NCBI GenBank assembly: GCA_008632985.1
Contig: QPGO01000187.1
Location: 62,001-126,000, forward strand
Source of the DNA: Psammoneis japonica
Taxonomy: Eukaryota
Length of the DNA stretch: 64,000 bases
Reading direction: 5' to 3'
A model generated the notes under the pieces. It was not told the origin of the DNA, ran no database searches, and was given only the letters and a program-made list of their open reading frames with translations. Below, piece by piece: positions 27,301 to 64,000 of the stretch (position 1 is the stretch's first letter; each line of letters begins with the position of its first letter). The position numbers and the translations under genes are program-made.

Positions 27301-27720
27301 AGCGAATTGCAGCAGTCAGGAACATCATCTTGTCTTCACAAGAGGCGTCTCGCTGGTTTTGATGCCCCGCCAATGAGAGCGATGCATCCTTTCACGTAAA
27401 ACTCGGTACGAATTCTCTTGCAATTGACACACTTGTCACAGCAAAATGTGGATGTCATGCATTGACATTTTTGGTAGGAAAAGGTTTGGTGGCAAGATCA
27501 AACATCGGTTGTTGCCGCATCATGGTTGGTTTGTTTTTGTCGCAGCGGCGCATGAATGTCGCAAAAAGTCTGTCCGTCGTACGCGACATCATGTGCTCAC
27601 CTGTCAGCAACATCAAAAATGATCGACAGACAATGGCAAACAACGCTCGTCGCCCTCGTCGTCCTCGTCGTCGTTGTGAGAACTGCTTGAGTAACAGCAG
27701 CACAGTAATCGAGCGGCGCC

Positions 27721-30149: not shown

Positions 30150-30955
30150 CATGTTGGCCATGTTGTCAATGTCATTGGGACCCAACACATGCTGAAACAA
30201 GTTTTGGCAAGCCATGTGGCCATCCTGGGTGCCCTGCACCAACTTGACATGCACCAACTTTGAGTGCTCCCAAGTCATCCCCAAGATGGTTTCCAAACCT
30301 TGACATCATCCACAGCGCAAGTGTCAGTGTCTTGCCATGACCATTGACAAGAGGTGCATGGGCAATCATCTCATCACAATCATTTGAACAACCAGCCTGT
30401 GGGTTGTCAGCCTCAAGAGCAACCTCCTGCTCATCACTCATCACACACAATGCAGGCAAGGGGTGCTTCATTCTCACCAGAGCTTGCATGCAGATGCTCC
30501 CCAATGGAGTTGAAGGTCTTAGGCCAGCCTTTTTCTAGAATGGTCGGCAGCTCCTCTGGGGACTTGTGGGCTGTCTTTGCAGTCTTGAGATGATGGATGC
30601 CATGTGCAGATGCCAAGGTGATGCCTGGGGGCTCCAGCATGTGAGAAATGCGCACATGGTGATGCGCCAGATGTGCACTCAGCTTGAGGTTTGTCTCAGC
30701 TCATGGGGAGACAGCAGTGCCCAAGTTGGCTTGCAGTGGATGAGCCTGTTCACCAGGCAGCACTGGTGGCAGAGCTTGAGCACCTCCTGGATGCCTGAGG
30801 ACCTTGCAAAGCTGCCAACCCTTGTGGTTGTCCATGTGTCCCAGCTCAGAAATGCTGCCAATGCCTTGTTCATTGGTTGTGGCATGTGCTGCCGCACTGG
30901 TGAAGCCCAGATGCACACATGGTGTGGCGTGCATGGCTGCGACTTGTGTGGCCAT
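30150..30955 (-). pseudogene. Degenerate Ty1/Copia (CoDi-type) gag
   Basis: LGFT..AA..EQGI.S..EL..LCKVLRHPGG..AETNLKL..WPKTF..APLACIV..EMIAHAPL matches the diatom CoDi gag pattern, with Tyr replaced by Cys/His. Confidence 0.7.
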
Positions 30956-31963
30956 CTTGGGTCACAGGTCACAGAAATTCAGCAGAAAAAAACACACACA
31001 CGTTTGCATTTTGCCCAAAAAGTGAGCAGATTGCATGAGTTTTCAGCAATTTTGATGGTTGGACACAGGACTTGATGTCCTCTCTGTGCCACCACAGGAT
31101 CACATGCAGAGTTGTCGCATTGGACTGGCAAGTGGTGTGCACTTGGCTTGAACATGTGCACTCATCTGTTTCAATGAATCACAACAAATGACAGTGCTTT
31201 CATTCCTGTGTGAGTGTTCACATTGCACATTGTGTGAGCACATGCAAGTTGTCTCAAATGAACATGACAAACAACAGCATGTGTTTTGTGATCTGCAGAT
31301 GTTGATGTTTGCATTGTGCAAATGCACTGGGTTCCCACAGCCTGCTCAGCCCACAGCGAGTGTTTAAAATGTGTTGACAGCCCAAATGTGCAGTGCGACT
31401 GCACTGCAATTCTGACATTCTCACTCTGCGACATTCCATCACTCATGCATTTGCCTCCGCAGCAACTTGGTGACAAAAATGACATCCCATGGTCATTGTT
31501 GTGGTGCCATGCACCTGCGATGAATGCTTGTGAGACACATCAGAATTGTTGACACTGTCATCACCATGTGGTCGTGTCAAGCTCAAACAAATTCTGGGGG
31601 CAAAAATGCTGCACCCAACTGGCTCAAAATGTGACCAAACATTCAAAGATGTTTCCTGATTGTGCCCAATCAATTGAAACCCTAAATTTCAGGCAAACAA
31701 AATGTTCACATGCGCCACAACTCTTGGCACAATCAGTGCATTTGATTGTGGCTCTGACAAAGTCAAGAAACCATGCTGTTGTGATGCACATGGCAGAACA
31801 AGTGTCAACACATGCAGCGTGCAACTAAAGCCAAGAAGTGAGAGTGAGTGGTGATGTGCCATGAACTTTCCATTGTTGCCAATGTTTGCAGCTCAATGTC
31901 CTGTGAACAACAGACCACAGGCCACAGGTCAAACTCTTCATCAAGTGAACGCTGAGAAATGTT

Positions 31964-34900: not shown

Positions 34901-35228
34901 AGCTCACAAGTGTTTTCATCTTGGAAGTGCCTTTCATGCAAATGAGCAATCCAGAGTTTCCATTGAGTGATGCTCTTGCTGTTGCTCGCATGCTGACCAT
35001 GTTGTTTGCTGAAAACACACACAGCGCTTTTTTGCGACAACGAATCTTTGACTCCCATGATTTTCACAGAAAATGCACGCAGAAATGATTTTCACAATTT
35101 TCATCTCATGCCACCTTGATGACATGTGCATGCTGGCAAAGCTGTGTGCATGCTCAGCTCAACGAGTGTGATGATGTCATCACACACCACAGCCACATGC
35201 ATCCCACGGCAGCCCTTGCACAGGGGCG
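31964..35228. mobile_element. Non-autonomous Mutator-like (MULE) element, 3265 bp
   Basis: TIR C(A/G)CCCCTGTGCAAGGG at both ends and a perfect 9-bp TSD AGAAATGTT (31955-31963 / 35229-35237). Confidence 0.8.
34426..34687. mobile_element. 262-bp foldback MITE nested in the MULE
   Basis: TIR GGCCTGTTCCAGC(C/T)CCAGG(G/T)GATG, central hairpin ggtgagtgcacacaaaa/ttttgtgtgcactcacc and 4-bp TSD TGGT. Confidence 0.85.
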
Positions 35229-35575
35229 AGAAATGTTTGGCCAAGACAAGTGTCGCCAAAAAAATCAACTGCCGACATCATGATTTTTTTTTCTAAACAG
35301 CTCGAAATCTACTCAATCTACTTCCACTTGCCTGAAAACTGCTTGTCAGTCAGAAAACGAGCTCCTGTCGCGCCAAATGGCCTCCATGCATGACAGGTTC
35401 TTTGTGCTTTTTCAATTTTTAGGGGTGATGTGCAGACTGCACCAAGATTGCCAGTAGCCACTGCGTGAATCTTCTACGTGGGGGTGACCATTTAGCTGGA
35501 ATAATTCGACTAAATCTTTTTTTTTCAATGTTCGTCCGCCATCCGAATTCCTCGTGCTTTTTGTGTGACAAAAAA

Positions 35576-44861: not shown

Positions 44862-46564
44862 GGTTTACAATCTACTACAACGAGATGAAGAGTGAATGGG
44901 GCGTGTTGACGGCATTGCTGCGCTGCCAGGAGCGAGGAGCAACGGATTTTTCGAATTTTTCTCAAGGTCATTACAAAATTTGTCGTCGCATTATGCGAGC
45001 ATTGTCCTATTGCCCAACCCACAGCAGGGGCCATTTTTGTGACTTGGGCAGTGCCATTGGATGTCATTGCAGCTGCCCTGCCATGGAGGCTGCCAGCCGG
45101 AGAAACGCATGTTGTTGCGCTTCAGATTTTCAAACTCACGCAAGAAAGATCGCATGGGACCTTCAACTTGCGAAACTTCCCTCCGGCCAGGCCAGCACCA
45201 CCATGAAAAAGCAAGCGGGGGCCAGACGACGAGGACAACAACTCGACGTGGCTGTCAGACTTGGCAGAGAAACACGACAACGCACCAGAGAACAGTTTCC
45301 AGGCAGGGTGAACATCACACCACAATTGCTTTTTTGCAGAGGCTCAAAACGGAGCTCTCAAGCTCTGCCGATGTTCGAGAGCTGCTTCTTGGAGTCTGTC
45401 AGCACTGCAAGCCACCAGAGCAAGCTGCGAGCGTGCTCTTTCTTTTTGCCAACCTCGCGCACATTTGTGAGTGGAGAGCGAGCTTTGCACTGCCTCCCCT
45501 CTTGTGGATCTCATGCTCCTTGTTGATTGATGCCACAACTCTGCTGCAGCGCTGTGCGCAGGAGTGGGCAGGCAAAACAATGTCGCAGTGGCCTGGCAGT
45601 CTTTGTGATGCCCCTGTTTGTTGGCGCAGTCATCAGCTCTGTTGGGCGCTTTGGCTGTGGATGCAACATCCAGCATCTTGGCTGGAGCCCCTGGTTGATG
45701 ACCAACCCGGCACATTGTCAGTCAGTCAGCATGGGGAGCCCGCGCCAACTCAAGCCACAAAAGATGCAGCCGCCATGAGCAGATCCAAGATGATTGCTGA
45801 AACCAAAAACCTCAACAATGCTGCTGTCCCAGAAGGTGGCTTTGTGGCCAAGACATGGTCAAAATGTTTGACCGGGTCACTCTTTCAAAGTGAAGAGCTC
45901 TGTGAAGCACTTGGGGGTGCTGAAGTGATTTCCACAACAAGCCCAGTCAGAAACCTCAGGACAAGGAAGAGTCAAACTCCATCATCAAGAAGAAAGCAGA
46001 GACCTGTGTCTCAAATGCAAAGAAGAAGCACAAGGGAATGCAAAGAGGAGCTCAACCACTCCCATGATCAGCGCATCATCAACTCCACAACTCCAAAGAT
46101 GACTCCAAAGTGGACATCCGAGGAGGAGGCAAATGCAGTGCTGGTGGTTTCAATGCATTGGATGAGTGCACAAATGAAGGTCTGTCTGCCATCATGCTTG
46201 TGATGTGGGCCTGTCCCACAAACGAATTAAAAACATGAGAAACACCAGCTTCCACCAAGGCCTCCCCCTGTCATGCAAGAACAAGCTGACAAGACAACAA
46301 GCTCTGGGTTTTTTGGATCTTTGAAGAGATCCTTCAATCTGCTGATTGTCAATGGCTGCATTGTCCTTTCATTCTCCATTGTCAAATGCTTGTTTTGCCC
46401 CTGAGACATGAGAGGTGTGGAGCGCGGTTTTGAGGAAGAGCAAGACATGCCAAGCAGAGAGTCAAAAAACATTTGTGGGCTCAAACAACACTTGGATTTG
46501 CCAACCAGTCTCAGCTGCTTTTTCCTCAAAAGTCATCAATGCCAATTGCTTTTTGTGCTCAAAA

Positions 46565-47000
46565 TTGGCTGCTGGGCCAGTCCATGACTTCTCAACAAAG
46601 CTTTGACTCCAAAAAGTCAGCCACCCACTCTTGGCCATCACAGCCAACATTGTCATCTCCCTTGAGATCACTGTGCCATCACATGGAACAAAAATGTGTT
46701 CCAATGGAGTTGTTGTGCCATGAACGCCAATCTAGAAGGATTTTTGACAAGGCTGAAAATGACCATTGTTTGGGTCTTGGCTCACCTCGGTCGGGGGTCC
46801 CTTCACCCACATGCACTCACAGCGCTGGAGTTGCATGATGTGCATGTGGCTTGACAATGTCCAGAAGAAACTCTTGATGCACTTGAACAAAGAAAGCACA
46901 TTTTCCTGATGGCTGTGGTTGTTTGCACCAACAGAAAACAGAGACAATCACAAGGTGCAGAGCTGCTGTTGCTCTTCCAAGTTTTCCAGAAAGATGCTGT
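46565..47000 (-). pseudogene. Third, highly degenerate partial copy of the SGNH esterase gene
   Basis: Colinear with 55235-55700 (aaaagtcagccaccc, catggaacaaaaatgt, gggtcccct) and translates EHIFVPCDGTVIS. Confidence 0.75.
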
Positions 47001-47585
47001 TACATGAGGTGCAACAAAGGAGCAAAAGTCCTCCCAATTGGCAGTGACAAAAGAGGAATGATGTGCCCATGCTGTGGTGAATGACCCCATGCCGAGATGC
47101 TTGGGCTCAAGAGGGGATGGTTTGTGCACAAAATGCAGAAAAGCTTTGCTCTCAGTGCGCCACAAGAATGCCCATGGACCAGCATCTCCAGGCACCAATT
47201 TCATCTTTTTTTGTGGCTGCACTCTGATGATGACCCTCTCTGATCTAGAGCAGCAGTTGGCAGTTTGCCATTTGGTGGAAGCACGGTCAATTTCCCGTCT
47301 GCGTCGATGAGACAGATGGATGGACGTGATCGTGATCGTGACATCATGACTGGGCAAGGGCGCGATGAGCCCGCCCGCCTAAAACCAAAATGCTTCCCCC
47401 CCGGATTGGGTGACCGACTTCTGCCGGCATGCGTGGCAGGGACCATCTCAAGCAAGAGAAGGACGGAACGATCAGAAGGAAGGAAAGTTTGCGAGATGAA
47501 TGCAACACTGCAGCTGCTTGCGAACACGATAAACTGAAATTTGCAGTCTAGAGAGATGCAACGGCGACAATGGGACAGTGCAATG

Positions 47586-48025
47586 TGCAGCTGCTGACAA
47601 GAGCCAATGTGTCACGGCGACGTGTTACAGCCTTTAAATGTCACAAAGGGCGTGACAAAAATGACCTTTGTCTGCATGCACACTGCATTGTGAATTCACA
47701 ATGCAGCAGTTCATCGCAGCCATCAGGCAGGAGGCCAGGGGTTCGAAACCCTGAGTGGGAGTTGTCTGCAGCAACGTTGATCACTGTCGAACGCGTAAAA
47801 ACTCTGTGCAGTTCTGCATGTTCCTTCGCACGCACCCACACTGTTCCGCCAAAACCGTGCAGTGTCAGCACACGTCAGTGAAGAGCCGCATGGACGCGTG
47901 ACACATGGGGAGGAGTGCAGCACACAGCTGCCAACAAGAGCCAATGCACCACGGCGACGTGTTGCAGCCTTTGAATGTCACAAAGGGCGTGACAAAAACA
48001 ACCTTTTGTCTGCATGCACACTGCA
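47586..48025. repeat. Two ~100-bp direct repeats ~337 bp apart
   Basis: acaagagccaatg..cacggcgacgtgtt.cagccttt.aatgtcacaaagggcgtgacaaaaa..tttgtctgcatgcacactgca at ~47586-47687 and ~47923-48025. Confidence 0.85.
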
Positions 48026-48236
48026 ATGGCTGCAGTTCTGCACAATGGTTTGAGTTGTGTTGCGGCCTTTGTCGTTGGTCATCAGAATGCAAAGCAACAT
48101 TTGTCACGGTGATGTGAGCGTGTCTCTGCCACCGCACGACCATTCACAAGATGTGGAATGTGTTCCCCGAGCTGTCCCCTGGCAATCAAGTGGCACTGTG
48201 AACCTCAATGCAAGAGCCATGTGCCACACCAGGCGT

Positions 48237-49049
48237 TCATTCCACACAAGTGATTTCAACGCAACTCTTTCCAACATCACCCGCATCCAATCTGAACACC
48301 CCTTTCATTGAGATTTCTTGATCAATCAGTTCTGCAGTTTCCGGAACACCAGTGGTTTCCATGTTTTCAAGTTCAACTTCAGCAGAGATGAAGAATTTGT
48401 TTGCAAGCCAACCGGGGCAATCCAAGTGGCAATTGGCATGCCCACAGGTTCCAAACATCAATTCCCAGAAAGCTTGAGCCGCCTCTTCTGCCATTTCATA
48501 GAAGTTTTCAGGAGGTTGGTTGTTGTCCTTTTCTTCATGTGCAAGGCAGATGAAGAACCGGCAGTGCGGCTTGGTCATTTCTGTCAGATCATTCTTCTCG
48601 AACAACGAATTCTCGCGGGCCTCGTGCTTGAGCTTCTTCTTCCTCCCTTCAATTTCCTCATGATTGGCATTGTCACACATCGGAATTGATTTGTTCGGAA
48701 ATTCTCGGTTGAGCCACGCTTGTTCCAAGCGTGTGCACAAGTCGGTCACGGTGTCGTCGTTTTTGTCACAGGGTGCTTCCAGCCACTCAGCGTGACCCGT
48801 CAGCACCTTCATGTCAAAAGAGCAAGCCAGAAATGCAGCAGGGGACAAATTCTCTTCCTTCATGATTTGCGCACAGCCTTTGTACAGTTCATGACTTTCT
48901 GTCCTGCCAAAGTCGTCTTCTTTCTTGAGAACTGCTTGAACAACAGCATGCCAATGCTGCGTTGCAAGGACTTGCAGCCCACGCTGAACACCCTTGTCGA
49001 GTTGGTCAAAGGAAGTCATGGAAGGCTTGTTGTCAAAAGTGGCACTCAA
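48237..49049 (-). pseudogene. TpA-depleted ORF of unknown function
   Basis: 270-aa protein-like ORF with only 2 Tyr, inside a mutated domain. Confidence 0.35.
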
Positions 49050-49301
49050 GATGATGGCAAGGTGGGGAGGATGAAGAGACGCAGCACGCAGCGATCACAG
49101 CAATGCTGGATGCTTCACCGCTGCAACCTGCAACGCACGCAGAGCCTTCTTTCATTGTTTGTTTTCTTTTGTCATTTTTTGGCTTCACGCACAGACCGAC
49201 GGACAGATTGCATGACTGCTCGAAGCATGACATGCGTGAGCAGAAGAACAAATCATTGACCACTCAGTGGTTGGTGATTGCAGACTTTTTCGTGTCGGTC
49301 C

Positions 49302-49352
49302 GGCAGTCGGGCAGTGGGGCAGTGGGGCAGTGGGGCAGTCGGGCAGTCGGGT
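49302..49352. repeat. 8-bp tandem repeat GGCAGT(C/G)G x6
   Basis: ggcagtcg/ggcagtgg units seen directly. Confidence 0.85.
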
Positions 49353-51098
49353 TGTCCGTCTGAATTTGAAAGTGTGTCCCTTGGATTTTGAAAGGGCATG
49401 GGTTGTTTAGTGCAGATGAATTCTTCGGATTCTTGGAATTGTCATTGAGGACATGAGAGGTTGTGGGGACATCCTAAAAAATTGACAAATTCCCTGCGAC
49501 TGGTGCGTGGCACGGTTTTTCAGGAGAGCTCAAAAGTTCTGAAAAATTGGGATTGCCGGCGTGGCATGTTCAAAAATGTGCTCAGTTACACACAAAGACA
49601 ATTTGTCATGAATTCCACACGAAAAAGTCACATTGGGGAAAACACATCAAACTGCAAGTGAGTTTGTGTGATGCGCTGTTGTGGCGATAAATTGGAAAAA
49701 AAAGAGTGTCCGTGCACCTCGCTGCAGCCCCAAAAATGGCATGAGACATCAAATGTGACGGTCATCCGCGTCACCGGTGCGGTGGCCACGCCACTCAGCC
49801 ACCACAATGCCGGCCCCGACGCAGGGCCCTGCGCACGTACAGGCAATGCAGCATGCAACGGCACACATGCACCCACACCCACAAAGAAAGACAAGTGGTC
49901 AATGCTCCCTGCAGGCCTGGTTGTGTTCAATCCCATCTGAATCCCATGCTCTAGCTCTGTCTTTTTTCACCGCCCCCGCAGCTCTTCATGTGACTCAACT
50001 GCAATCCATTTCTGTGTCTCCCGGCCCCAATGCAACAGAACCACACAACTCCATTGGCCATTTGTTGGCAGCCAGTGACCAGTGCAAAACACAGAGCAAC
50101 AGTGGCTCCAGGCTGGCGAAGCACTCGGCGGCAGCTCTTCTTTTGCCTCACAAGCCACAATTGCTTTTTTGACAGAGCCTCAGATTTGAACTCTCAACCT
50201 CCACCCCACCACCACCACCACCAGCAGCTCTTGCCCCAGCAAGCACGGCCGCGCCAGCAGCGGAATCAACAAATGCCATGATGCAACAGGATCCAAGGTG
50301 CGCTGCAGCAACCGCACATCAAACATTCTCTCTGTGGAAACCTCCCTGGTCGGTGGTGTGCTGTCTGTTGGCAAAAAAATTTCAGCAGAGTTGAAAAGAT
50401 CAAAAATGTGAAAAACTTGCAAAGATTGCACAGCAGGCACAACTGCAGCAAAGATGCTCCCACAGAATGCACAAGCAACTGGGTGCTGTTTGTGTGGCAC
50501 ACCAATCATGAGCACATGCACTTGGAAATCACAACCATTCACTGAGGCAATCCTCCCAGCTCAGCATTGCTGGCTGTCCTGAGATCACAACAAAAGCTCG
50601 TGTGTGGCTGGAGCATGTGCTGCTTCCTCAGCAAGCACCCAGCACCGCTGCTCTTGTTTTGCTTCCAGCACCAGCTTTGCCAGTGCCAGGTGCAACCTGA
50701 GTCTTTGAATTCCTTGTCATTTTGACTTGCTCAATGGCCAACCAGCTGATTCTTCAGCAATTGCTGGTCAATTGACCTCTGTCATTCTCTGACTCTGCTC
50801 TTCACTGTTGGCTGATGATCCTGATTTTGAGCACTCTGGTTGGTTGTGGTGCAAGCCACTGGCACCAGACCTCAAGCCAGAGCTTGCAACTCAAGGAACC
50901 CAGAACTGGAGCTCTTGCCAGAGAGCCACAATGGGTGGGTGGTGTGGCTGCAAGCAAAAACTCACTCTCAACTCGTCAACATGCAGTGCAACATTGGTGA
51001 AAGAAAAGAGTGAGGTTGCCATGGCTTGTCAGGTGCTTGCAGCCATGAGTGCTGCTTCTGCAATGCACAAAGCACCTCAGAAGCAGCAACGCACAGCA

Positions 51099-51372
51099 CC
51101 CCCCCCCCCCCCCCCCCCCCCCCCCNNNNNNNNNNNNNNNNNNNNNNNNNNNNNNNNNNNNNNNNNNNNNNNNNNNNNNNNNNNNNNNNNNNNNNNNNNN
51201 NNNNNNNNNNNNNNNNNNNNNNNNNNNNNNNNNNNNNNNNNNNNNNNNNNNNNNNNNNNNNNNNNNNNNNNNNNNNNNNNNNNNNNNNNNNNNNNNNNNN
51301 NNNNNNNNNNNNNNNNNNNNNNNNNNNNNNNNNNNNNNNNNNNNNNNNNNNNNNNNNNNNNNNNNNNNNNNN
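51099..51372. other. Poly-C run followed by assembly gap (N, 51126-51372)
   Basis: Seen directly. Confidence 0.99.
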
Positions 51373-51610
51373 AGAACAATCTCTTTCTCTCTCCTCAAGA
51401 GATGCACGTGTGGCAACAGCACCTGGTCTTAAGATTGCCTGGTGCAGCAGAGAGAGAGGCAAGTTCTCATCATCCAAAAGCTCACCAATGCAAGAGGAAA
51501 CTAAAACCAAAGTCACTTTCTACAGCAAGTTAACTTCTGACAAAGTTGCAATGTTGCACATGGCACCACATGAGCAGACAACAATGTCCGCAGTTGTCTG
51601 GCAGTCATCA

Positions 51611-52001
51611 CAACAACTCCATTTGTTGGTGCAACCATCGGCTCTGTCGAACGCATCAGCTGTCAGGCCAGTCCATGATTTCACAAAGCTTTGGTTCTAA
51701 AAAGTCAGCCACCCTTTCTTGGCCAAGCTGGTTCTTGTGTCAACAACTCCATTCATTGGTGCAGCCATCATCTCTGTCAAACGCATGTCAGCTGTTGGGC
51801 CAGTCCATGATTTCACAAAGCTTTGGTTCTAAAAAGTCAGCCACCCGCTCTTGACCAAGCTGGTTCTTGTGTCAACAACTCCATTCGTTGGTGCAACCAT
51901 TGGCTCTGTCAAACGCATTTGCTGTTTGGCCAGTCCATGATTTCACAAAGCTTTGGTTCTAAAAAGTCAGCCACCTGCTCTTGACCAAGCCGGTTCTTGT
52001 G
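51611..52001. repeat. 3 x ~130-bp tandem amplification of the esterase pseudogene 3' end
   Basis: Unit caacaactccatt..ccagtccatgatttcacaaagctttggttctaaaaagtcagccacc..ggttcttgtg occurs three times. Confidence 0.9.
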
Positions 52002-53563
52002 GCTGTCACAACCAATGTCACCAAATCCCATCACAACCGGGCCGTTGCATGGAACAAAAATGTGTTCGGTCAGAATGGTTGCACCATGCGCAATCTGAAA
52101 GGATTTGACAGCATCTTGTGCATGTGGACAAGGTTGACAATGATCGTTGTTTGGATCTTGGCTCAGTTCCGCCGGGTCCCCTTGCCCACATGTGCTCGCA
52201 ATTGTTGGAAATTCATTGTTTGTAAATGGCTTGTGGCAATCTGCACAAGAAACTCTTGATGTGATTGAACAAAAGTCTCATTGGAAGGTGCCCCCTCTTG
52301 GTGGTTGCAATCATTTCCACCAAGAGAGACAATCACAAGGTGTGGTTGCCACTCCTCAAAGTTCCAAAAAGGCAGTGTCTTGGTCTGAAGGGTTCGGTTG
52401 CAATGACCCTGCATTGTTTTTTTGCCAAGCGCCACTGGCAAATTCGCAAATGCACTCTGCATCAGTCCAATGCCTAAAATGGCTTGGACGCTCACCTCAG
52501 CATTCAAACGTTTTCCCAAGATGCCAGGACATGCAGAGTTGCAATTGTTGCATTTCCAGGGTTGAGCAAGATGGCTGCATGTTTGCGGAGTGCCATCCAC
52601 ACAAAAGCCTGCCACATCACTGGCACCAACAAAACCAGCCCAGCATGCTGGCAGTGTTGGTGGAGTTGAAAGAGTTGCAACAGCGTCATCCATTTCCACT
52701 CCATGGAATTCAAGCACCGGCATGGCTGACTTGCCCAAACCGTTGCCACAGGGTGCACCGCTTTTGTGTCAGCAATTTTGTCAGCGCCGACGCGTTCCAG
52801 GTCTGGGTGGGACCTCGCACTGCTGAGCTGTGACGTCGACAGTTTTTTTAATCACGTTTGCATGTCGCACACACAGATTTCTGCTTGATTTTTTCGACAT
52901 TTTGTGTCATTTTACGGTGCAGTCATTGAGCGATCCGTCCAAAAACTTTTGACATTTTTTGTCACAGCGCGATTCTGTGACGTCTTGAGAATCGCGCAGG
53001 GCAGGCGCACTTGCAAAAACGTCGAGTGGTGAGAGGCACAATTGTGCCACAAACTTGGCCATCTGTTTGATGTTGAAAACAAACACATCCATCAATTAAA
53101 TTCTCGCACTGCGGAGCTCGCACGTAGAATTCTACGGGCCCAATGTCACAAGGAGTCCCACCTGGGGCTGGAGCACGTCCGCCAATGCCGCGGTGTGCAC
53201 CCTGGTGCCTTCAATTTGAGTGCCATGTTTGTCCTTCTCTGGCTGAAACAAATTTCCTTTCAGAATTGTTGTTTGCTCCAGTTTGCTGGTGACTGTGTTG
53301 GCTGCGACTGCATTGAGCCCGCACCCGATGAATTTTTGCTCGGAGGGCAAGGATGCCATCTCTTCTGCAGTCATGTTTGTGTTGAAGTGCACTCTGCTGC
53401 ATGGCCAGTCCAACCTGACAACACCATTGTCCTCAAGCTGTTGCCAGTGACCTGCAAAACTGAAGTTCTCTGCATTGTTTGCAGGACAAAAGGTTCCTTC
53501 AACAACAGCAGCGCTCAAGGCAACAACAAGACTTGCAACAGCACAAACAGTTGAAATCCTCAC
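51915..53563 (-). pseudogene. Full-length hypermutated copy of the SGNH esterase gene, interrupted by a MITE
   Basis: Colinear with 55232-56464, and its 3' flank (~51430-51650) matches ~55020-55230. ATG has become GTG and Tyr has become Cys/His throughout (GNDY to GNDC, WKYNN to WKCNN). Confidence 0.93.
52789..53179. mobile_element. 391-bp MITE
   Basis: Absent from the intact paralog. Imperfect ~25-bp TIR GACGYGYTCCAG..GGTGGGAC and 4-bp TSD CGCC (52785-52788 / 53180-53183). Confidence 0.85.
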
Positions 53564-53919
53564 AGCAACACGACGGCTGTAGCTTGAAAAGCAACAAGGT
53601 TGGTGCTGTCTGTTGGCAGTGACACCATAACCATGGGATGGTTTTTGTTCGATGTGCACAACTTTCGAACTTCAAAACTGCGACGGGCGTCGGGACGGCT
53701 GGGGGACGGACGTCAGTCCACGGGGATTGTCTTGTCAGTGTCTCGGGTGTGTGTTGGTCTTGATTCTGTGCCTCATTGCAGGCGTTGTCTGCCTTGCGGC
53801 TTGCGGCGCACAGAAGTTTTCAGTTTTTCGATAGCTACAGTAGCTAAGCATCTAGCATTGCATCAAGAATCAAGAAGAGTGGAAACAGATTGACGATTAT
53901 AAAACCATCATCATACACC

Positions 53920-54713: not shown

Positions 54714-55231
54714 TCCGACTTTTGTTGGCGGAAAATCGCAGCACGTTCACACCATTCCAAAATATGCCAGTGCGTAACGAAACGTCAGTGTATTGCACAT
54801 TAGACATTGTCTATTATAACAGCTAAAACCTGTAAACTATCCAATACGACGTGTGTTGAACCTACTCACGGCAAGAGTGACTCTGTTGCGCACGACGCTG
54901 TCTTATGTCTTTCACCAAAGATTCTTATGGCAAAATAAGCGGTTGACGCTTTGCGACTTAGCTGACACTTAGGAGCCCAAAGCGATTGAAAAGTCACATC
55001 TGTGTAGCTACAGCTCATAATCTCGAGACTACACCGGTGCAGAAGAGAGAGGAAAGTTCTCATCACACAAGAGCTCACTAAGTCTGAAGGAAGAAGCTGA
55101 AATAATACGTCGCCCTTTGCAGCAAGTTAACTTCCGATAATGCCAAAATGCTGCCGTGGCACTACATGGGTAGGCTACGACAGTCATCGCAACACCTCCG
55201 CTCGTTGATGTAGCCATCGGCTCTGTCGAAC

Positions 55232-56464
55232 TTATTGGCTGTTGGGCCAGCCCATGATTTCACGAAGCTTTGGTTCCAAAAAGTCAGCCACCCGCTCTTG
55301 ACCAAGCCGGTTCTTGTGGCCGTCACAACCAATATCACCATCTCCCGACACAACCGTGCCGTCGCATGGAACAAAAATGTATTCGGTCGGAATGGTTGCA
55401 CCATGCATAGTCTGAAAGGATTCGACCGCGTATTGTATGTACGGACAAGGCCGACAACGATCATTGTTTGGATCTCGGCTCAGTTCCGTCGGGTCCCCTT
55501 GCCCACATATACTCACAATTGTTGGAATTTCATCGTTTGTATATGGTTCGGCAATCTGTAAAAGAAACTTTTGATATGCTTGAACAAAAGTCTCGTTGGA
55601 AGGTACCTCCTCTTGGTGGTTATAATCATTTCCACCAAGAGAAACAATCACAAGGTGTGGTCGCCACTCTTCAAAGTCCCAAAAAGGCAGCGTCTCTGTC
55701 TGAAGGGTTCGGTTGTAATAATCCTGTATTGTTTTTTCACCAAGCGCCACTGGCAAATTCGCAAACGCATTCTGCGTCAGTCCAATGCCTGATATGGCTT
55801 GGACGCTCACCTCGGCATTCAAACGTTTTCCCAAGACGCCAGGATATGCAGAGTCGCAATTGTTGTATTTCCAGGGTCGAACGAGATGGTCACATGCTTG
55901 CGGAGTACCATCCACACAAAAGCCTGCCGTATCACTGGCACCAATAAAACCAATCCGGTGTACCGGCAGTTTTGGTGGAAGCGAAAGAGTCGCGACATCG
56001 TCATCCATTTCTACTCCATAGAATTCAAGCACCGACGTGGCTGACTTGCCCAAACCATTGCCATAGGGTGCCGCTTGTGTCAATTTTGTCAGTGTGACGG
56101 TGTGCATTCCGGTGCCTTCAATTCGAATGCCGTATTTATCCTTCTCTGGCCGAAACGAATTACCTTTCAGAATCGTTGTTTGCTCCAGTTCGCCGGTGAC
56201 TGCGTTGGTGACGACTGCGTTGAGCCGCACCCGATGAAGTTTTACTCGGAGGGTAATGACGCCATCTTCTGCAGTCATGTTTATGTTGAATTGCACTCTG
56301 CTGCACGGCCAGTCCGACCTGACAACACCATCATCCTCAAGCTGTTGCCACCGGCCTGCAAAACTGAAATTCTCTATGTTGTTTGCAGGATAAAAGGTTC
56401 CTTCAACAGCAGCACTCAGGGCAACAACAAGACTTGTAACAGCACACACAGTTGAAATCCTCAT
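55232..56464 (-). CDS. Secreted SGNH/GDSL hydrolase, carbohydrate esterase CE2-like (410 aa)
   Basis: Signal peptide MRISTVCAVTSLVVALSAA, N-terminal FAGRW..DWP domain, and blocks IGFIGASDTAG, AISGIG, SLGGNDY, GCDGH. Confidence 0.88.
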   Translation of the reverse strand: MRISTVCAVTSLVVALSAAVEGTFYPANNIENFSFAGRWQQLEDDGVVRSDWPCSRVQFNINMTAEDGVITLRVKLHRVRLNAVVTNAVTGELEQTTILKGNSFRPEKDKYGIRIEGTGMHTVTLTKLTQAAPYGNGLGKSATSVLEFYGVEMDDDVATLSLPPKLPVHRIGFIGASDTAGFCVDGTPQACDHLVRPWKYNNCDSAYPGVLGKRLNAEVSVQAISGIGLTQNAFANLPVALGEKTIQDYYNRTLQTETLPFWDFEEWRPHLVIVSLGGNDYNHQEEVPSNETFVQAYQKFLLQIAEPYTNDEIPTIVSICGQGDPTELSRDPNNDRCRPCPYIQYAVESFQTMHGATIPTEYIFVPCDGTVVSGDGDIGCDGHKNRLGQERVADFLEPKLREIMGWPNSQ

Positions 56465-56752
56465 AGTAACACAACGACTAGTTCCTATCTTGAAGAGCAG
56501 AAATGTTGGCGGTGTATGTCTGTTGGTAACATCATGAGGATGGTTTGTGCGATGCACGCAACAACACAGCACCGTCCGCGAATTTTTATGAGTTATGTAT
56601 ATTTATATGAACACAACGGAAATTTTTGTCAATGGTGTTATGTAGTTTTTAACGGTTATCCGTTAAATTTAGTCTTGTTTGGCGAAGAACATAATACTGT
56701 TTATGCATTATTTATTCATGTGCCTTTCTATGTTTTGAGTCGTGAGGGCTGT

Positions 56753-56783
56753 TGATGACTTATGATGACTTATGATTACTTAT
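56753..56783. repeat. 10-bp minisatellite (TGATGACTTA)n, left part; continues at 62170-62262
   Basis: The same unit lies on both sides of the Gypsy element. Right-hand units mostly read TGATGACTTG or TGATGACTTT. Confidence 0.9.
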
Positions 56784-56945
56784 TGCAAGGTCTAACGAGA
56801 TAAAGACTTCAGTGATAACAAAATTGTGAGCGAAAGACCGAGGTAACGAGGGTCGCTTTCAGCGAAGCCCGTTACAACGGCTTCCGTTATATCTAATAGG
56901 TTCATTAATACTATATATCAGAAAAATAAGGTGCGAGACACTGCA
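56784..56945 (-). repeat. 3' LTR (TpA retained)
   Basis: 149/162 identical to 62008-62169 by hand alignment; adjoins the PPT. Confidence 0.95.
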
Positions 56946-56959
56946 CTCTTCCCTTCCAT

Positions 56960-58182
56960 GATTCGAGTGTCGAGAATCATGCGGGACTCAAAAAATTTAA
57001 ATTCCAATGGATGAGGATAGAAGGGAAACCCAAATGTTGGGGAGAAAACCCTTAACCTCAGGTATGATACGGTACGACGCGATGTATATTCAATCGTTCT
57101 GTCACATGAGGTGTACGTTGGACCGTAAGTGTGCCGTTGGCGTGTGCTTGAACGACAGGACATGGACCGTGAGCTCGTGGCTCGAGCTTGGTTGGGTCGA
57201 CAGCCTTGAGTAGAACTTGTCCGCCAACTTGAAAATCGTAGGATCAGCGTTTAGCGTTGGCTCGATGGAGATTCGCATTAACAATTGTTTGTCGGTGTTC
57301 TTGAATGGCAGCAAGATCGGCTGGGACCGGCAAGTCAAGAATCATGTCATGTTGAAAAACCACAGCACCGGGTGAAATCTTGAGAGCACGAGAAACCGCA
57401 CATCGCATTGCATGCATGGCAGTTGCCAATGCATTGTCCACTAGTTGATTGGCCTGCTCAACATTCTGTGGAGGACAAACATGAAGCAAAGTGCGCAAGA
57501 TGTTTCCAACAGTTTGATGCATGCGCTCGCGTGCCGCACTGGCTTGTGGATTTCGCGACGCAGTCGGAGCGTCTTCTACTCCTGCTCGTTGCAATGACAA
57601 TTGAAAGTCCTCTCCAATGAATTCTCCACCATTGTCATGGATGCACCGGTTGGGATGAGGATGACGAGACAACCAACAATTTTCAAATTGTTGAGCAATG
57701 TGAGACGAGGTTTTGTTGTCGATGCGAACAAGTTCAGTCACATTCGAAACGGCGTCAATACAAGTCAAAGCGTTGAATTCGATTTCATGGTTTTGAATTT
57801 CAATTTTCCAGGGACCGATGAGGTCAACCGCAACTTCCGTCCATGGTGATAAAGGCGCTTCCCGTTCAGGCAGGTCCCCATGTCCAGGGCCCAAAGTTTT
57901 CAAACGTTGACAATCAGCACAATGAAATCCTTCACAGGATTGACGAAGGGCAGGATGACAGAAATGTGCGCCAACAGTGGAATGCATTCGGTGCACTCCT
58001 GCATGTCCCAAAATCCCATGACACCATCGTATGATGTCGTGCAGCAACGCCGTTGGAACACAAATTTTCCACGCAGTCGGAGGATCATTCGGTCGAGCAC
58101 GACAACAAATTACAGGACGCTGATTCACATGTTCCACAACGAAGCGTTCTGGACATTGTTGTCGCACATTGTTCAGCTCCAC
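56960..58182 (-). pseudogene. Gypsy integrase
   Basis: H-x4-H..CADC zinc finger, VAVDLIGP, HDNGGEF and NPQASAARERMH. Confidence 0.9.
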
Positions 58183-58206
58183 GTCGACGAATTGGCATTC
58201 TTGAAT

Positions 58207-60540
58207 TCATTGCACAGTTGCAGGGTTTTGCATTTCCTCGAGAGAAGGACAGTTCAAAAATGATTCACACAATTCGGGGTCGTCCACGACAGAAGAATAA
58301 AATGGAGATGGTTCTTCACGACGACAGGAAAAATGAGACACACTGTTTTGGTCGTCCAGTTCTTCTTCATGCGGTGGCACAGCAGGGTCGATCGTCTTAA
58401 AATCAATCAGCTTGCCCTTGTCAGGAGCACACTTCCCTTCCGCAGGAGGGTCCACACGCGGCAATCTTGAAAAACAATCCGCCAAGAGACCATCTTTGCC
58501 ATCAACGCATTCGAAAGTTGGGGCAAAATCTTCCAAGAAGAGTCGCCACCTAAGAACTCGTTGAGAATTGAGCGCACGAAAGGTGAGATTTTTATGATCC
58601 GTAAAAACAGCACAGTCAGCTCCAAATGACATGCTTCGAAATTCTTTGAAACACATTGCCACCGCCAACAATTCTTTTTCAATCGTAGAGCAGTTCTGTT
58701 GTGCTGCGCTGAGTTTCCGGGACCAGTGAGCCACTGGTTTCCCGTCTTGCATAATTGCGGCTCCCATCTGACAGTCCGAAGAGTCAGCACAAATGTGGAA
58801 TGGTTTGTTGTGATCCGGGTGGACCCAAAGGGTGTCGTCCAGCATCAAGGTTTTCACATCTTCAAAGGCTCGTTGACATTCAGGGGTCCATTCCAACTTG
58901 CTCTTGCCTGTCAACTTTGTGAGTGGAGCGAGCACGTGTGAGCGACGAGGCCACATGTTGCGACAATAAGTTGCTGCACCGACAAACGATCGCAGTTGCG
59001 TCACAGTTTTAGGTGGTTGCATTCGTAGCACCGCTTCCACTTTCTTCTTCCACGGTCGGACTCCTGCAGGCATGAGCCAATGGCCTAAAAAATCCGTCTC
59101 TTGGACACACCATTCGCACTTGAGTGGGTTAATTTTCAGATTGTTCTCTTCTAGTCTGGATGACAGCTCATCGAGTCGACGCATGTGAGCATCAAACGAA
59201 TCATCAAATTGAGCAATGTCATCGATGTAAGTTTCAACATCGACTCCTTTTGCCACTTTTTCAATGATGGCTTGAGCAATGTCGGGAGAGGTTTTCAAAC
59301 CCATGGCCAATCGACAACATCGAAATTTTCCAAACGGAGTAACAACAGCACACAAATCCTTGGATTCTTCGTCAAGCTCGATGTGACAATAAAACACAGT
59401 GAGGTCCAACTTGGTCAAGTGCTTGCATCCCGAGCGTCGGTGAATAACGTCTTGAATGATCGGCAGAGGACAGACCTTTCGCTTGAGCACCTTGTTCAAC
59501 TCACGAAAATCGGATGCCCATTGAACTCGTCCATCCTTTTTGGGAGTTGCAAAAGTTCCGGCTGCCCATTCAGTTGGTCCCACTGGTTCCAGTGCGCCAA
59601 CATTACATGGATGTTGCAGTTCTTTCTTAAAAACGGCTTCATCCCTCTTGGACACTTCACAAGCCTTAGAATGGAAGGGAACAGCATTGGGATCAACTTC
59701 CAAGTGAACAGTCTCATGCGGACATTTGCCAAGCATTCCATCAAAGAGGGTTTCATGCTTTTCAAGCACTGCCTGTAGCTCATCACGTTGTTCTTGAGTT
59801 AAGTGAGTTTGAGCTTGCGCCACTTTCGCGGATGATGCTTTCTCGCACTTGGCGTCCATCACAAAAGATTGTCCGAAGGCTTCCTCATCGTCTTCGTCTT
59901 CTCCGTCGTTTTCCAGTGCATCCAACCAATTCTGAACTGAGTTCCAATGATTGGATTGCTTCATTGGGATCGACGTTTCCAACCACTTTGTTGTTCCAAA
60001 TCGAAAATCAAGCACGATTCCGGCTTTCGACAAAAAGTCTTGTCCCAAAATTAAATCATGCTTGCATGGGGCATCAAAAACTTGAGCCGCAATGCTGTCG
60101 ACTTGTTTTGACTTGTCAAATTCTGGCAATGTCAAGTCCTTCATAATGACGCATCGGGAGGATTCACATCGTCCGGCTGCCGTCTGAAAGCTCAACCGTC
60201 CTTCATCGTTCATGGTTGGATTCGCTCCCTTCGGCAAAACTCGAGAATGAACAAGAGTGTCAGCACCTCCTGAATCCAATGGCACTCGCAACACTCGCTC
60301 ACTCTCTTGATTTTGAATGGCACGCACCGCCATCAACGTCGTTGGCACCACATTCAATGGTTTGGGAGTCGCAGTTTTAGGGGTTGGCTCAGCGCACTCC
60401 AAAACGCCGCCCAATTTTTCTTCATTCACAGCATGAGATTCCATCAGGTCTCCCACATTGTCATCAACATTAAAACATGTGTTTTCTTCACGATCACACG
60501 AAACATAAAAAGATTGAGCGACACGCTCTGACTCGGGCAC
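58207..60540 (-). pseudogene. Gypsy pol: aspartic protease, RT, RNase H
   Basis: LDSG, DFRELN, TPFGKF..MGL, YIDD, FLGH, ADSSD, SRKL..EKELLA and FTDHKNL. Confidence 0.95.
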
Positions 60541-60552
60541 TTCCGTCCCTTG

Positions 60553-61774
60553 TCAATTACGCCAACTTCGTTGGCCTTGATGGGTGCGACCGTTCTGATC
60601 GCATCCATTTCCGCCTCGCATCTCACGAGGCCCTCCTTGATCAAAATGGTGCGACTCCATTTGCCAGCCACCAGGGGGAGCTGCTCCAGCCGGATTTCCA
60701 CAGCCTTGGGCATCACCGTTGGCTTGGGTGCCGTTTTGATTTTGGCAATAGGATCCATTCCCTTGAGAATTCTGGGAGTCATTGTAATTGCCGTAACCTC
60801 GGCCTCCACATCCTCCTTGATTGCCATGACTGCCACGTCCTCGACCTTGGAAGTTGCCACGACCTCCTCGACCTTGGGGTCCTCTGCCTTGGCAGTTTCC
60901 TCGGCCTCCACCACGACCTCCGCTACGACCGCCACGGTCGGACCTCGGTCGATGGTTTTGGCTTTCTGGATTCAAAATGCAATCCTTCCACTTGTGGTCA
61001 TGATTCGCATGCACCGGGCATCTAGATTCTGGATCCGTTCCACCACTGTTGCCACGAGAGCGTCTTGAAGCTTGAGACGAAGCACCATTGCTTTTCCTCT
61101 TCTTGTCCTGCTTCTTGTTGCTGCTCTTGTCAGCAAAAGATTTCTCATTGTTCGTGTGACTGATGATCTCAGCGAGAGCATCGTTTGCTGTCGCTCGTCC
61201 TGCTCGAGTGCACATCTCACGCCACGGACGAGGGAAGCTGTCGAATGTCATCTTTTTCTTCTGAGCTTCGTTGACTTGAGGAGCATTTCCCGGAAGTTTG
61301 TTGGAGTGCCGAATCAAGGTTTCCATGCGATCTGCATGCGCCCGCACTTCAGATTTGAATGGTTTTTTCAAAGTTGGCAAATGTTCAATCATCACATCAT
61401 GCGCTTCATCATCACAATAAGACAAGTAAAAACGATTGATTTCCTGATCAAAACGCTCGACAGTTTTATCGGCATCGTCAATTGCATTGGTCAAGTTCAC
61501 CCACTTGTCCTCTGCAGCATCCGCAAGCACTTCCTCGAAATTTTCGAACAACTCCTCGCCAGTGGTGCACTCCAATTTCACAGCAATTTTACGAAAACGA
61601 TCCTCAACGAACAACAATGCTTCAATGCCATGAGTGCCATCAAAACGCGGACACTTTTTTGTACGAGTGCTACCGTCATCATACGATTGGGTCAATTTCA
61701 CGTCCTCCAAGTCAGAATGCTCAAATTTAGCTTCACAGCCAATGCAAGGCTCCTTCAACGATTCACTCATCATG
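60553..61774 (-). pseudogene. Gypsy gag
   Basis: Open frame upstream of pol with CPVH..HKWKDC knuckle and RGG-rich tail. Confidence 0.85.
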
Positions 61775-62007
61775 AAAAAGGGAATGCAATTGTTCAACAG
61801 TCCTTTCCAGGGACTCCACCTTTGACTCCAAATGATGCACTCGGCTCGCCAAATTCTGTTCGTGTCGTTTACGTTGTTGCACTTGTTTCTGGTGCTCAAC
61901 AGCCCAAACTGCTGCTCCTGCGCGCAGTTCTCTTTTCTCACGTTTGGTCAATTTGTTTGCATTGTTCCCAGTCTCCACCCAGTTCTTTGAATCGACTGTA
62001 ATTACAG

Positions 62008-62169
62008 TGCAAGGTCTAACGAGATAAAGACTTCAGTGACAACAAAATTGTGAGTGAAAGACCAAGGCAACGAGGGTCGCTTTCAGCGAAGCCCGTTACA
62101 ACGGCTTCCGTTGTGTCTAATGGGTTCATTGGCACTACATGTCAGAAAAACAAGGTGCGAGACACTGCA
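62008..62169 (-). repeat. 5' LTR (TpA converted)
   Basis: Direct repeat of 56784-56945. Confidence 0.95.
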
Positions 62170-62534
62170 CTTGTGATGACTTATGATGACTTGGGATTGC
62201 TTGTGATGACTTGTGATGACTTTTGATGACTTTTGATGACTTGTGATGACTTGTGATGACTTCACTTAGGAAGTCGAGTGTGCGGTTCCCGTGCGAAGGA
62301 CAGCCAGCTGTCTGTCTGTGCAAAAATGTCATCAACACGAGAAGACGGAAAGGACGCGTTGATGTTGACTGGCATCAACTATGGCGTTCAAAACAACAAT
62401 CAGCAAAGCCATGAAAGTAAAACCATGATTACCACAATGAAGAATTCAACTACTTTAGGTGCTGCAAATGTGAGCGTGCGGCCAGAAGCACGCGCAATTG
62501 GGCAGTCTGAGGCATCGTCAACACAAGTTGCGAG

Positions 62535-63026
62535 TCAGTTCTTGTTTTTCTTGGACTTGATGAGCCAGTGAGAGCGCGACAAACAGTCCCTCTTCTCCTG
62601 ACAAATGTGATCTCGAAATGCTTTCAACGGGAAAGCCGCGCAAGCTTGGCGGGTTGCTCGTGGCTTCTCCGGCTCGATCTTTGTCTTGTCGCGAATCGAC
62701 GTGTCGACGTCAATCTTGAGCCACCTCTCCACCTCGGATCCCTGCCAACGAGGATAGCCTCGGAAGGCATGCGGTGCAGGAGGATGCAAACGCAGGTCGT
62801 GCAAGAAATCAGCCCTGTCTTGTTTGGCACGGGCTTGCCCGGCAGCGATGGTTTTCCGAAGATTGTTCAGGTTGCTCTGAAAACGCTCACAGGGGAATTC
62901 TTGAAATTCGGGGCACGTTTGGCAGATGGCTTTGGGTCCCATTCTGTCAACCTTCTTGGAAATGATGTCTTCCCCAAGAAGCATCTTTGCCTTGCTGTGC
63001 TTCCAACCTTTTTTTCCTCTTGCCAT
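62535..63026 (-). pseudogene. Degenerate two-repeat ORF (W..S.A..LL..D ... R.EY..F....FR.HIYQE type)
   Basis: WKHSKAKMLLGED..PEFQEF..RF and WQGSEVERWLKID..AFPLKAFRDHICQE. I recall this family as repeat-associated in diatoms; unverified. Confidence 0.5.
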
Positions 63027-63421
63027 GGTCATCGTTCCCTGTTGGCTCTGTCGTCTTGGTTCTGCTGTGTGCTGTGGACTGGCCAGGAAATCGCCAAAAA
63101 TTGTTTTGCCACAAAACTTTGGAATTTGAGTGGGCGGCACATTTCTACGTGCACACTAGATTTTCGGTGCATTTCTGCGAAACTCAGTGAGAAACAAAAA
63201 CCATGTGGAAGCGCACAGGCAGAGATTGCCAGGTTAACCCGGCAAAAAAATTTGAGTTTGAATCCCTCTTGTTGATCCTCGAAGGAAAATGTACATTGTG
63301 TTGTCTTTGCAAACACACATGGGAAAAACATTTCCCACGCTTGGCACGAACAAAATTTTGGAGGTTTAGCGAGGCAAAGTTCTCGCTCAAGTTCTTTCTT
63401 CATTGCATGCACAGCAGCTCA

Positions 63422-64000
63422 ATGAGCAGCAGTGGCAGTCAAAACCAACAGCTGCAGCAGCCACTTTCCTCTCCATCGCCCAACAGGACCAGGAGATCCA
63501 TCGGAAGCAGACGTTGCGACTCTGTTCCCGCAGCTGTCAACCAAGCAATCATTGAATCGCTGCTCCGTGATGGGACCGTCTTGTTCTCCGACTTTCACAA
63601 CAACGAACTTTGCGGATCAGCCGACAAGTCCGAGGAAAGAAGAGCTAGAAACCAATTTGACGTCATCCGCCGCTGGCTGAACTGTCAACCCAATCATTTC
63701 GACAACTTGGTCAGAGATCTCGAAGCAATCGAAGACACGCCGGAACCGGAAGAGCCTTCACCAGCAGCCGCACCAGCAGCGGTGCCAGCAGCCGCACCAG
63801 CAGCAGAACCAGCAGCATCAACACGAAGAGCCATGGCGAGCAAGTGCTGCATTGTTCCATTTTTTACAACTGTTTTGCATCTCTCACCATCACGTCGCCT
63901 TCTTCTTTTGTTCTTTTGCAGATGTCTTTGATGGTGCCAACGAGACGGCGGAGCTCCTGGCCATCGAGATCAAGGTCAGGACATTCAACTTAGTCCGACC
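63422..64000 (+). pseudogene. Divergent ORF with PAAA repeats, partial
   Basis: MSSSGSQ..PAAAPAAVPAAAPAAEPAA, with a possible intron at ~63845-63920. TpA-depleted. Confidence 0.35.

Follow-up and report, generated by a model that had tools for sequence, protein, structure and literature searches.

Probable position-dependent TpA hypermutation of a Ty3/gypsy-type retrotransposon and its surroundings in the diatom Psammoneis japonica

A long terminal repeat (LTR) retrotransposon of 5,386 bp lies on the minus strand at 56784-62169 of a 64,000-bp stretch of the Psammoneis japonica genome (assembly GCA_008632985.1, contig QPGO01000187.1, positions 62,001 to 126,000 of the forward strand; the whole stretch is called the window below). 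The two LTRs of this element differ in one direction, and we investigated the element, its flanks and a nearby pair of duplicated host genes for the kind of process that could have produced the difference. Gag and pol are read from the minus strand, so the 3' LTR is at the left end. The features of the element are the following.

56784..56945, minus strand: 3' LTR (left copy), 162 bp, TG...CA termini; 15 TpA, 10 CpG; regarded as close to the ancestral state
62008..62169, minus strand: 5' LTR (right copy), 162 bp; 5 TpA, 8 CpG
56779..56783: left copy of the 5-bp target-site duplication (TSD), CTTAT
62170..62174: right copy of the TSD, CTTGT
56946..56957, minus strand: polypurine tract GGAAGGGAAGAG (minus-strand reading), immediately upstream of the 3' LTR
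60553..61941, minus strand: gag-like open reading frame (ORF), 462 aa, without a Pfam match; in-frame TGA end at 60553-60555
58207..60540, minus strand: pol ORF with RVT_1, RT_RNaseH and RT_RNaseH_2, in the frame of gag; in-frame TGA end at 58207-58209
57244..58182, minus strand: integrase ORF with Integrase_H2C2 and, below the cut-off, rve; truncated by the TGA at 57244-57246

To judge from its sequence, the insert is a Ty3/gypsy-type LTR retrotransposon. Its Pfam domains follow the order reverse transcriptase (RT), RNase H, integrase, with rve scoring 28.9 bits against a cut-off of 32.6; no protease domain was matched by Pfam in the ORFs of the element. Gag and pol share a single reading frame (1,637 codons) that is interrupted by three stops, every one of them TGA. 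The LTRs are 92% identical, and the TSD copies agree at four of five bases. The TG...CA termini, 5-bp TSD, polypurine tract, single-frame gag-pol and domain order are shared with the Ty3/gypsy elements of diatoms (the 'GyDi' elements), and the difference is that the closest of 353 protein relatives is only 61% identical; the named relatives are from the diatoms Pseudictyota and Cyclotella. By its reading frame the copy is dead, considering the three in-frame TGA and the loss of 21 of 24 conserved tyrosines. No second copy of the LTRs or of the whole element was found by blastn within the window besides itself, and a degenerate pattern of the LTR core had 0 matches in metagenome contigs.

The first-pass annotation of the locus had reported that the 162-bp LTRs differ at 13 sites, all transitions and without indels, that ten of these concern TpA, two CpG and one neither, and that the 5' LTR carries TG or CA at every TpA or CpG difference. 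An ungapped alignment and a dinucleotide tally bore out each of these points, and the three examples that it cited (ttatatct/ttgtgtct, ctatatatc/ctacatgtc and aaataag/aaacaag), together with the TSD, read as it had stated. Five of the 15 TpA of the left LTR are retained in the right LTR and ten are TG or CA there; eight of the ten CpG are retained and two are TG/CA. Thus about two thirds of the TpA and one fifth of the CpG are lost in the right LTR, and no TpA or CpG present there is missing from the left one. The changed positions were concentrated in TpA (10 of 30 positions inside TpA versus 3 of 132 elsewhere; Fisher p = 2e-6). At the 12 TpA or CpG differences it is always the same copy that carries TG/CA (two-sided binomial p = 5e-4), and the finding of transitions at 13 of 13 sites has p = 0.005 even assuming that two thirds of changes are transitions. 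By base, there are five T/C and six A/G differences. The 13th difference (A/G at 56908/62132) lies between two changed TpA, within TTAATA/TTGGCA. With respect to context, all three ATAT were lost and both CTAA retained. Because the two LTRs started out identical when the element inserted, what now separates them records the process in one direction.

The element is inserted in a minisatellite with the 10-bp unit TGATGACTTR, and the base that varies between the units is the very one by which the TSD copies differ. The minisatellite continues on both sides of the element.

56753..56783: minisatellite, left part, 10-bp units ending TTA
62174..62263: minisatellite, right part, units mostly ending TTG or TTT

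At the TSD and at two further minisatellite positions the left side reads TA where the right side reads TG. The 35-base flanks (56749-56783 and 62170-62204) agree at 29 of 35 positions and have a rare unit in common (GATTAC left, GATTGC right); three of the six mismatches are TA left and TG right. This match could reflect a longer target duplication or simply the minisatellite, and we leave it unexplained. A 35-nt target duplication was not adopted because any two in-phase stretches of the minisatellite match well.

Since two sequences by themselves do not reveal which of them has changed, outgroups were sought, and the interior of the element was used first to polarize the change. Pol was aligned with 30 relatives, the first of 120 listed, and columns in which at least 70% of the relatives had Tyr were scored. 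In these 24 columns the element has Cys 13 times, His seven times, Tyr three times and Phe once, while other conserved residues were kept (Trp 15/15, Gly 37/40, Asp 30/34). Going from TAY to TGY or CAY amounts precisely to a change of TpA into TG or CA; the loss of Tyr therefore polarizes the process, and the occurrence of both Cys and His among the outcomes indicates that both strands were mutated. Further excess changes in pol were Ile to Val (9), Thr to Ala (5) and Val to Ala (4), all of which the same TpA to TG/CA change can explain; Met to Val was seen in three columns. The observed/expected ratio (o/e) of TpA was 0.45-0.71 in five related metagenome elements versus 0.16 in the interior of the present one. 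Based on these relatives, the interior kept about one third of its TpA, matching the right LTR (5/15). LTR pairs were absent in the three of these five metagenome relatives that were examined.

A second comparison is offered by a pair of SGNH hydrolase genes 1 to 5 kb left of the element.

51873-52784 + 53191-53662: SGNH copy A, in a TpA-poor block, recognized as a duplicate of copy B
55190-56092 + 56098-56562: SGNH copy B, in a TpA-normal block, with an intact 456-codon ORF at 55235-56602, minus strand

Copies A and B differ by 184 substitutions (148 transitions and 36 transversions) plus indels. At the 45 TpA of copy B, copy A has TG at 20, CA at 18 and TA at 2, and 50 of the 74 CpG of copy B are TG/CA in copy A. 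In the opposite direction, only 3 of the 231 TG/CA of copy B are TA in copy A. We used 55 homologous proteins as an outgroup for the 12 codons at which a Tyr of copy B corresponds to His or Cys in copy A; the commonest residue of these homologues was Tyr at seven. Copy A is accordingly the derived copy at most informative sites.

The window as a whole was segmented by a two-state hidden Markov model (HMM) on TpA counts. We found that 34,000 of the 64,000 bp (53%) were TpA-poor, each segment with TpA o/e 0.05-0.15.

3801-12900: TpA-poor segment (HMM)
21201-24200: TpA-poor segment (HMM)
25801-27650: TpA-poor segment (HMM)
30151-35300: TpA-poor segment (HMM)
45051-53800: TpA-poor segment (HMM)
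57301-61950: TpA-poor segment (HMM)
62501-64000: TpA-poor segment (HMM)
57301..64000: TpA-poor domain holding most of the element and the right flank (HMM)
57130..57300: domain edge inside the element (TpA density)

The stretch 61951-62500 was scored intermediate (o/e 0.34). Over the whole window TpA reached 0.30 of expectation and CA and TG 1.44, but the distribution was bimodal: TpA o/e was 0.09 and CA/TG 1.64 in the poor blocks versus 0.55 and 1.21 in the normal ones. The longest TA-free run was 1,220 bp, disregarding a longer one across an N gap. CpG o/e was 0.54 in poor versus 0.94 in normal blocks; among the poor segments, it was 0.81-0.91 in the two segments containing or next to the gypsy element versus 0.22-0.69 elsewhere. 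In the element's own block a CpG o/e of 0.91 accompanied a TpA o/e of 0.15. Since CpG is still high there, TpA was erased well before CpG decays. The boundary inside the element is sharp, with 58 TpA observed and 72.7 expected, a normal value, to its left (56400-57280) versus 50 observed and 314.5 expected, about one sixth, to its right (57300-62007). TpA is at a normal level in the left LTR, the 3' untranslated region (UTR) and the left flank; the right flank shares the depletion of the interior.

The recognizable host genes were located in TpA-normal segments. At silent codon positions TpA o/e was 0.53 and 0.59 in host genes versus 0.14 and 0.22 in gag-pol. This makes the depletion a local one, as opposed to a genome-wide bias that selection hides, and both the HMM blocks and the silent sites confine it to discrete regions. 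The block edges lie 0.2-0.8 kb from gene starts or ends, which suggests silent chromatin as the target. The TpA that survive in poor blocks were enriched for TTAA, CTAA and GTAA. Only 1 of these 204 was in ATAT versus 51 of 1,039 in normal DNA, and ATAC and ATAG were also strongly under-represented. Such a context preference fits an enzyme better than selection.

Other copies of the family were traced in public reads (Logan contigs). Of the sampled words, 46% occurred in run X1 and next to none in runs X2 and X3. Aligning the contigs of run X1 to the element region at 80% likeness gave 1,893 pieces, with a summed depth of 1,000-4,500 over the element versus about 54 for the flank contig, so the family is highly repeated; the difference between the left LTR bin (3,371) and the right one (1,174) was not counted as evidence. 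The 690 variable places comprised 572 transitions and 118 transversions. The 40 best-supported of them, none in an LTR, fell into these classes.

CG in other copies, TG/CA in the present copy: 10/40, including the stop at 57244-57246
TA in other copies, TG in the present copy: 1/40
TA in the present copy, CA/TG in other copies: 4/40
CG in the present copy, CA/TG in other copies: 4/40
TG-versus-CA swaps (four dinucleotides): 8/40
Remaining differences between the present copy and other copies: 13/40

The TGA at 57244-57246 that truncates the integrase is CGA in nearly all other copies. Swaps between TG and CA would arise if a single ancestral TA or CG was hit separately in different copies. They also show that mutation has reached the rest of the family, whose majority sequence hence provides no clean ancestor. 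One contig of run X1, of depth 31, joins 56755 to 62209 without the element, next to a depth of 54 for the flank contig; it may represent an empty-site allele, compatible with a heterozygous insertion, and is a single joint within the minisatellite. The earlier view that the element is young is compatible with this contig, but the joint is single and unverified. Two positions differ between the window and the reads: 62381 is TA in the window and TG in all aligned contigs of run X1, and 57323 is TG in the window and TA in most of them. These differences could be allelic, could derive from another copy or could be recent changes.

Taking these results together, it is quite probable that positional hypermutation of TpA to TG/CA after integration explains the asymmetry of the LTRs. 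The element would have integrated first, with identical LTRs. Its 5' LTR, its gag and most of its pol, which make up the right 4.9 kb, would then have been exposed, like the adjoining DNA on that side, to a local process by which 5'-TA-3' becomes TG or CA (A to G, on either strand). This process would have spared the left 0.5 kb, with the 3' UTR, the polypurine tract and the 3' LTR, and the left flank, which adjoin an intact host gene. A single process to the right of about 57,300 is enough to explain the interior and the right LTR as well as the state of the TSD and of the right flank. That the LTRs differ and that a duplicate which is not a retroelement is mutated show that the process acts on DNA in place; that one LTR and one paralogue were spared shows that it is bounded by position and not by sequence identity. 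The target may be a chromatin domain rather than a sequence. A direction from TpA (and CpG) to TG/CA in the 5' LTR after insertion, as the annotation had proposed, is supported indirectly by the loss of Tyr in pol, the SGNH paralogues and their outgroup, the TpA-poor right side including the flank, and the ordinary TpA of the relatives. As for the chemistry, the reaction proposed for Bigelowiella natans, adenine-to-inosine deamination of DNA within a T-A context, has in our estimate an even chance of applying here. The natural tRNA substrate of ADAT2-like enzymes also has U before the target A.

A slower decay of CpG to TG/CA would accompany the TpA process. The present case shares with the deamination of methylated CpG the change of CpG to TG/CA at 2 of 10 LTR sites, at 50 of 74 paralogue sites and in 10 of the 40 best-supported private differences. 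However, that reaction explains the minor class only. The TpA process is faster than CpG decay, as is seen in the LTR, where 10 of 15 TpA were lost versus 2 of 10 CpG.

The nearest known counterpart comes from the chlorarachniophyte B. natans. According to a preprint, 231 of 302 new mutations in mutation-accumulation lines fell in two integrated viral regions, nearly all of them A to G or T to C, and those were all on TpA (bioRxiv 10.64898/2026.01.13.699255). The same source reports 124 TpA-poor, CA+TG-rich clusters in the genome (Mettrop et al., 2026, bioRxiv 10.64898/2026.01.13.699255), an enrichment of reverse-transcriptase and DDE domains among TpA-poor coding sequences, and a proposal of adenine deamination that is based on an ADAT2-like protein. 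The two cases share A to G or T to C changes at TpA that give TpG or CpA on either strand, and sharply limited regions of clustered TpA depletion with a gain of CpA+TpG. The spectrum of that type is found here in 10 of 13 LTR differences, in 38 of 45 paralogue TpA and in 20 of 24 Tyr codons, which are TGY or CAY, and the direction is seen in the interior and at the paralogue Tyr sites (7 for, 2 against, 3 uninformative). There are also differences from what the preprint describes. The host here is a diatom, a stramenopile; the footprint is far heavier, with o/e 0.05-0.15 over 53% of the window versus 124 clusters; the affected DNA is an LTR retrotransposon, a fragment of a duplicated host gene and unidentified DNA instead of giant-virus and virophage inserts; and CpG decay accompanies the process. 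Moreover, de novo mutations were measured in B. natans, and the present footprint is known from comparison alone. Within the scope of the material consulted, A:T-to-G:C hypermutation restricted to TpA has so far been described only in that preprint, and a full-text literature search, in whose coverage most subscription journals were not included, found no report of TpA hypermutation in diatoms.

The opposite direction was considered in the form of repeat-induced point mutation (RIP), which in Neurospora and other fungi turns CpA into TpA by transitions only and ruins repeated and mobile DNA. A process of this kind, C to T at CpA (G to A at TpG), would have acted on the left LTR and its flank, leaving the right LTR ancestral. 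The ten TpA sites fit such a change equally well (10 of 27 CpA/TpG sites of the right LTR differ; Fisher p = 7e-7), the region of the left LTR is AT-rich (GC 0.36-0.39) with TpA/ApT of 0.81-0.87, and SGNH copy B departs from the outgroup in this way at residues 292 and 388. The likeness extends to a local, transition-only, one-dinucleotide process that ruins repeats and leaves a compositional footprint. But a further process, acting in the opposite LTR, would be required for the two CpG differences. The interior, moreover, has demonstrably lost TpA, with Cys or His in place of Tyr at 20 of 24 columns, and its loss equals that of the right LTR, which makes a second process needless. The left part shows no excess of TpA, its 58 observed versus 72.7 expected resembling normal DNA and the 0.45-0.71 of the relatives. 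RIP creates TpA, and here the affected DNA loses it; no TAA or TAG stops are created, all stops of the element being TGA. Furthermore, RIP mutates both duplicates, and here one LTR and one paralogue carry nearly all changes, so that, unlike in RIP, duplication alone is not the trigger. We therefore regard RIP as highly improbable. Improbable as well, if slightly less so, is a chimera, in which ectopic recombination or gene conversion joined an unmutated left end to a heavily mutated copy, so that the LTR differences would stem from two separate loci. The many family copies in varied states seen in run X1 and the switch of TpA density inside the element agree with it. The flanks, however, share the asymmetry of the ends (left TpA-normal, right TpA-poor), and the TSD and two minisatellite positions are TA left and TG right; a positional domain explains all of this.

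Change before integration, by RNA editing of the ADAR kind or by cDNA editing, and selection against TpA or UpA are extremely improbable. Retroelements are common targets of editing. In their replication both LTRs are copied from the same template, and editing before integration therefore cannot make them differ. ADAR/APOBEC editing does share with the present case clustered transitions in retroelements, and ADAR is described, in the preprint, as favouring U (or T) before the edited A (bioRxiv 10.64898/2026.01.13.699255). It nevertheless acts on RNA or single-stranded cDNA and on one strand, and can neither split the LTRs nor reach the flanks, whereas both strands were affected here (13 Tyr to Cys and 7 Tyr to His; 5 T/C and 6 A/G in the LTRs) and a duplicate of a host gene shows the same change. 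As to selection, the loss of conserved Tyr is damage and not adaptation. Least probable of all is an artefact of sequencing or assembly in which modified bases of silent chromatin were misread as G or C. The blocks do look too clean, with TpA-free runs above 1 kb. Against a misreading, 354 pieces of run X1 were at least 99% alike and the flank contig had 1 difference in 285 bases, although this run may be the assembly's own source; the 36 transversions and the indels between SGNH A and B resemble those of a real old pseudogene, and the gap of 247 N in the window suggests a scaffolded assembly.

Some observations weigh against post-integration TpA hypermutation or limit its reach. The direction at the 13 LTR sites is extrapolated from the interior and the paralogue pair. 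The TSD difference is weaker evidence than it appears, because the variable base of the minisatellite coincides with it. Among the best-supported 40 variable places, TA elsewhere and TG here occurs once, versus four cases of TA here and CA or TG elsewhere. In the paralogue pair, the outgroup has His at two of the 12 Tyr sites, residues 195 (23/55) and 388 (48/55), and thus agrees with copy A, and it does so again at residue 292 (Met in 45 homologues); at three of the 12 sites its commonest residue is neither Tyr, His nor Cys. Such exceptions can occur if the TpA codon was already present in the ancestor that A and B share. The left-flank bin 56511-56721 has a summed depth in run X1 of 385 versus about 54, though it is TpA-normal. 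Finally, the recognized contents of the poor blocks are the gypsy element, an ORF with a CCHC knuckle and the duplicate of a host gene, the other blocks giving no Pfam, tblastn or phmmer match, and foreign DNA is thus no more than a possible target.

If post-integration TpA hypermutation is the right explanation, this kind of mutation is not peculiar to one chlorarachniophyte and shapes about half of this diatom stretch. On a wider scale, we lean somewhat towards the view that diatoms, and perhaps the stramenopile-alveolate-rhizarian (SAR) lineages, possess a chromatin-tied, defence-like T-A deamination that clears TpA from long non-genic or mobile DNA faster than methyl-CpG decays and stops a few hundred bases from active genes. 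The chemistry would be opposite to that of fungal RIP, and genes would be disabled by missense changes (Tyr to Cys or His) and not by stops. The straddling element would calibrate both the rate, about two thirds of TpA versus one fifth of CpG lost, and the preference, with A-T-A-Y lost first and TTAA and CTAA last. The annotation's warning that LTR-divergence dating would overestimate the age follows from the tally, as all but one of the 13 changes belong to the TpA or the CpG class. Such dating would be invalid, since the 13 differences shrink to 1-3 background changes, and the age of the present element would be inflated about four- to thirteen-fold (13 versus 1-3 non-TpA differences). Old transposons would be hidden from homology searches, and long false ORFs would arise, since TAA and TAG vanish. 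The TpA profile would serve as a sequence-only marker of silent chromatin and its borders, and the search for the enzyme would be narrowed to one that acts on both DNA strands, requires T before A and has a wider context preference.

Several further features of the window were recorded. A Pfam search of 56 ORFs of the poor blocks (10 of them searched again with E up to 1) returned nothing above chance level except a CCHC knuckle and a weak match to SGNH. No other gypsy pol was found in the window by tblastn with 30 of the 120 RT relatives, and the ORF of the right flank had no match by phmmer against 1.84 billion representatives. The CCHC zinc-knuckle ORF (10871-11404, minus strand), which lies within a poor block, may be the remnant of an older retroelement gag. 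Long overlapping ORFs occur on both strands of poor segments (e.g., 4824-6191 minus and 5849-7126 plus); they have no Pfam match and are probably not genes, and they appear because TAA and TAG are nearly absent there. The assembly gap of 247 N (51126-51372) is within a poor block. A 93-nt direct repeat (47577-47669 and 47914-48006) is 85% identical, several of its differences being TG versus CA, an alternation that would follow if an ancestral TA or CG was hit independently in each copy. The host genes, too, have their relatives among diatoms: the SGNH hydrolase is 44% identical to a protein of Ditylum, and an ECM29-like ORF shows 41% identity with Odontella and 39% with Seminavis. At residue 388 of the SGNH hydrolase (55439-55441), the intact copy B has Tyr (TAC) and the degraded copy A has His. 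This residue may be the catalytic His of the family, and the intact copy may thus not be an active enzyme.

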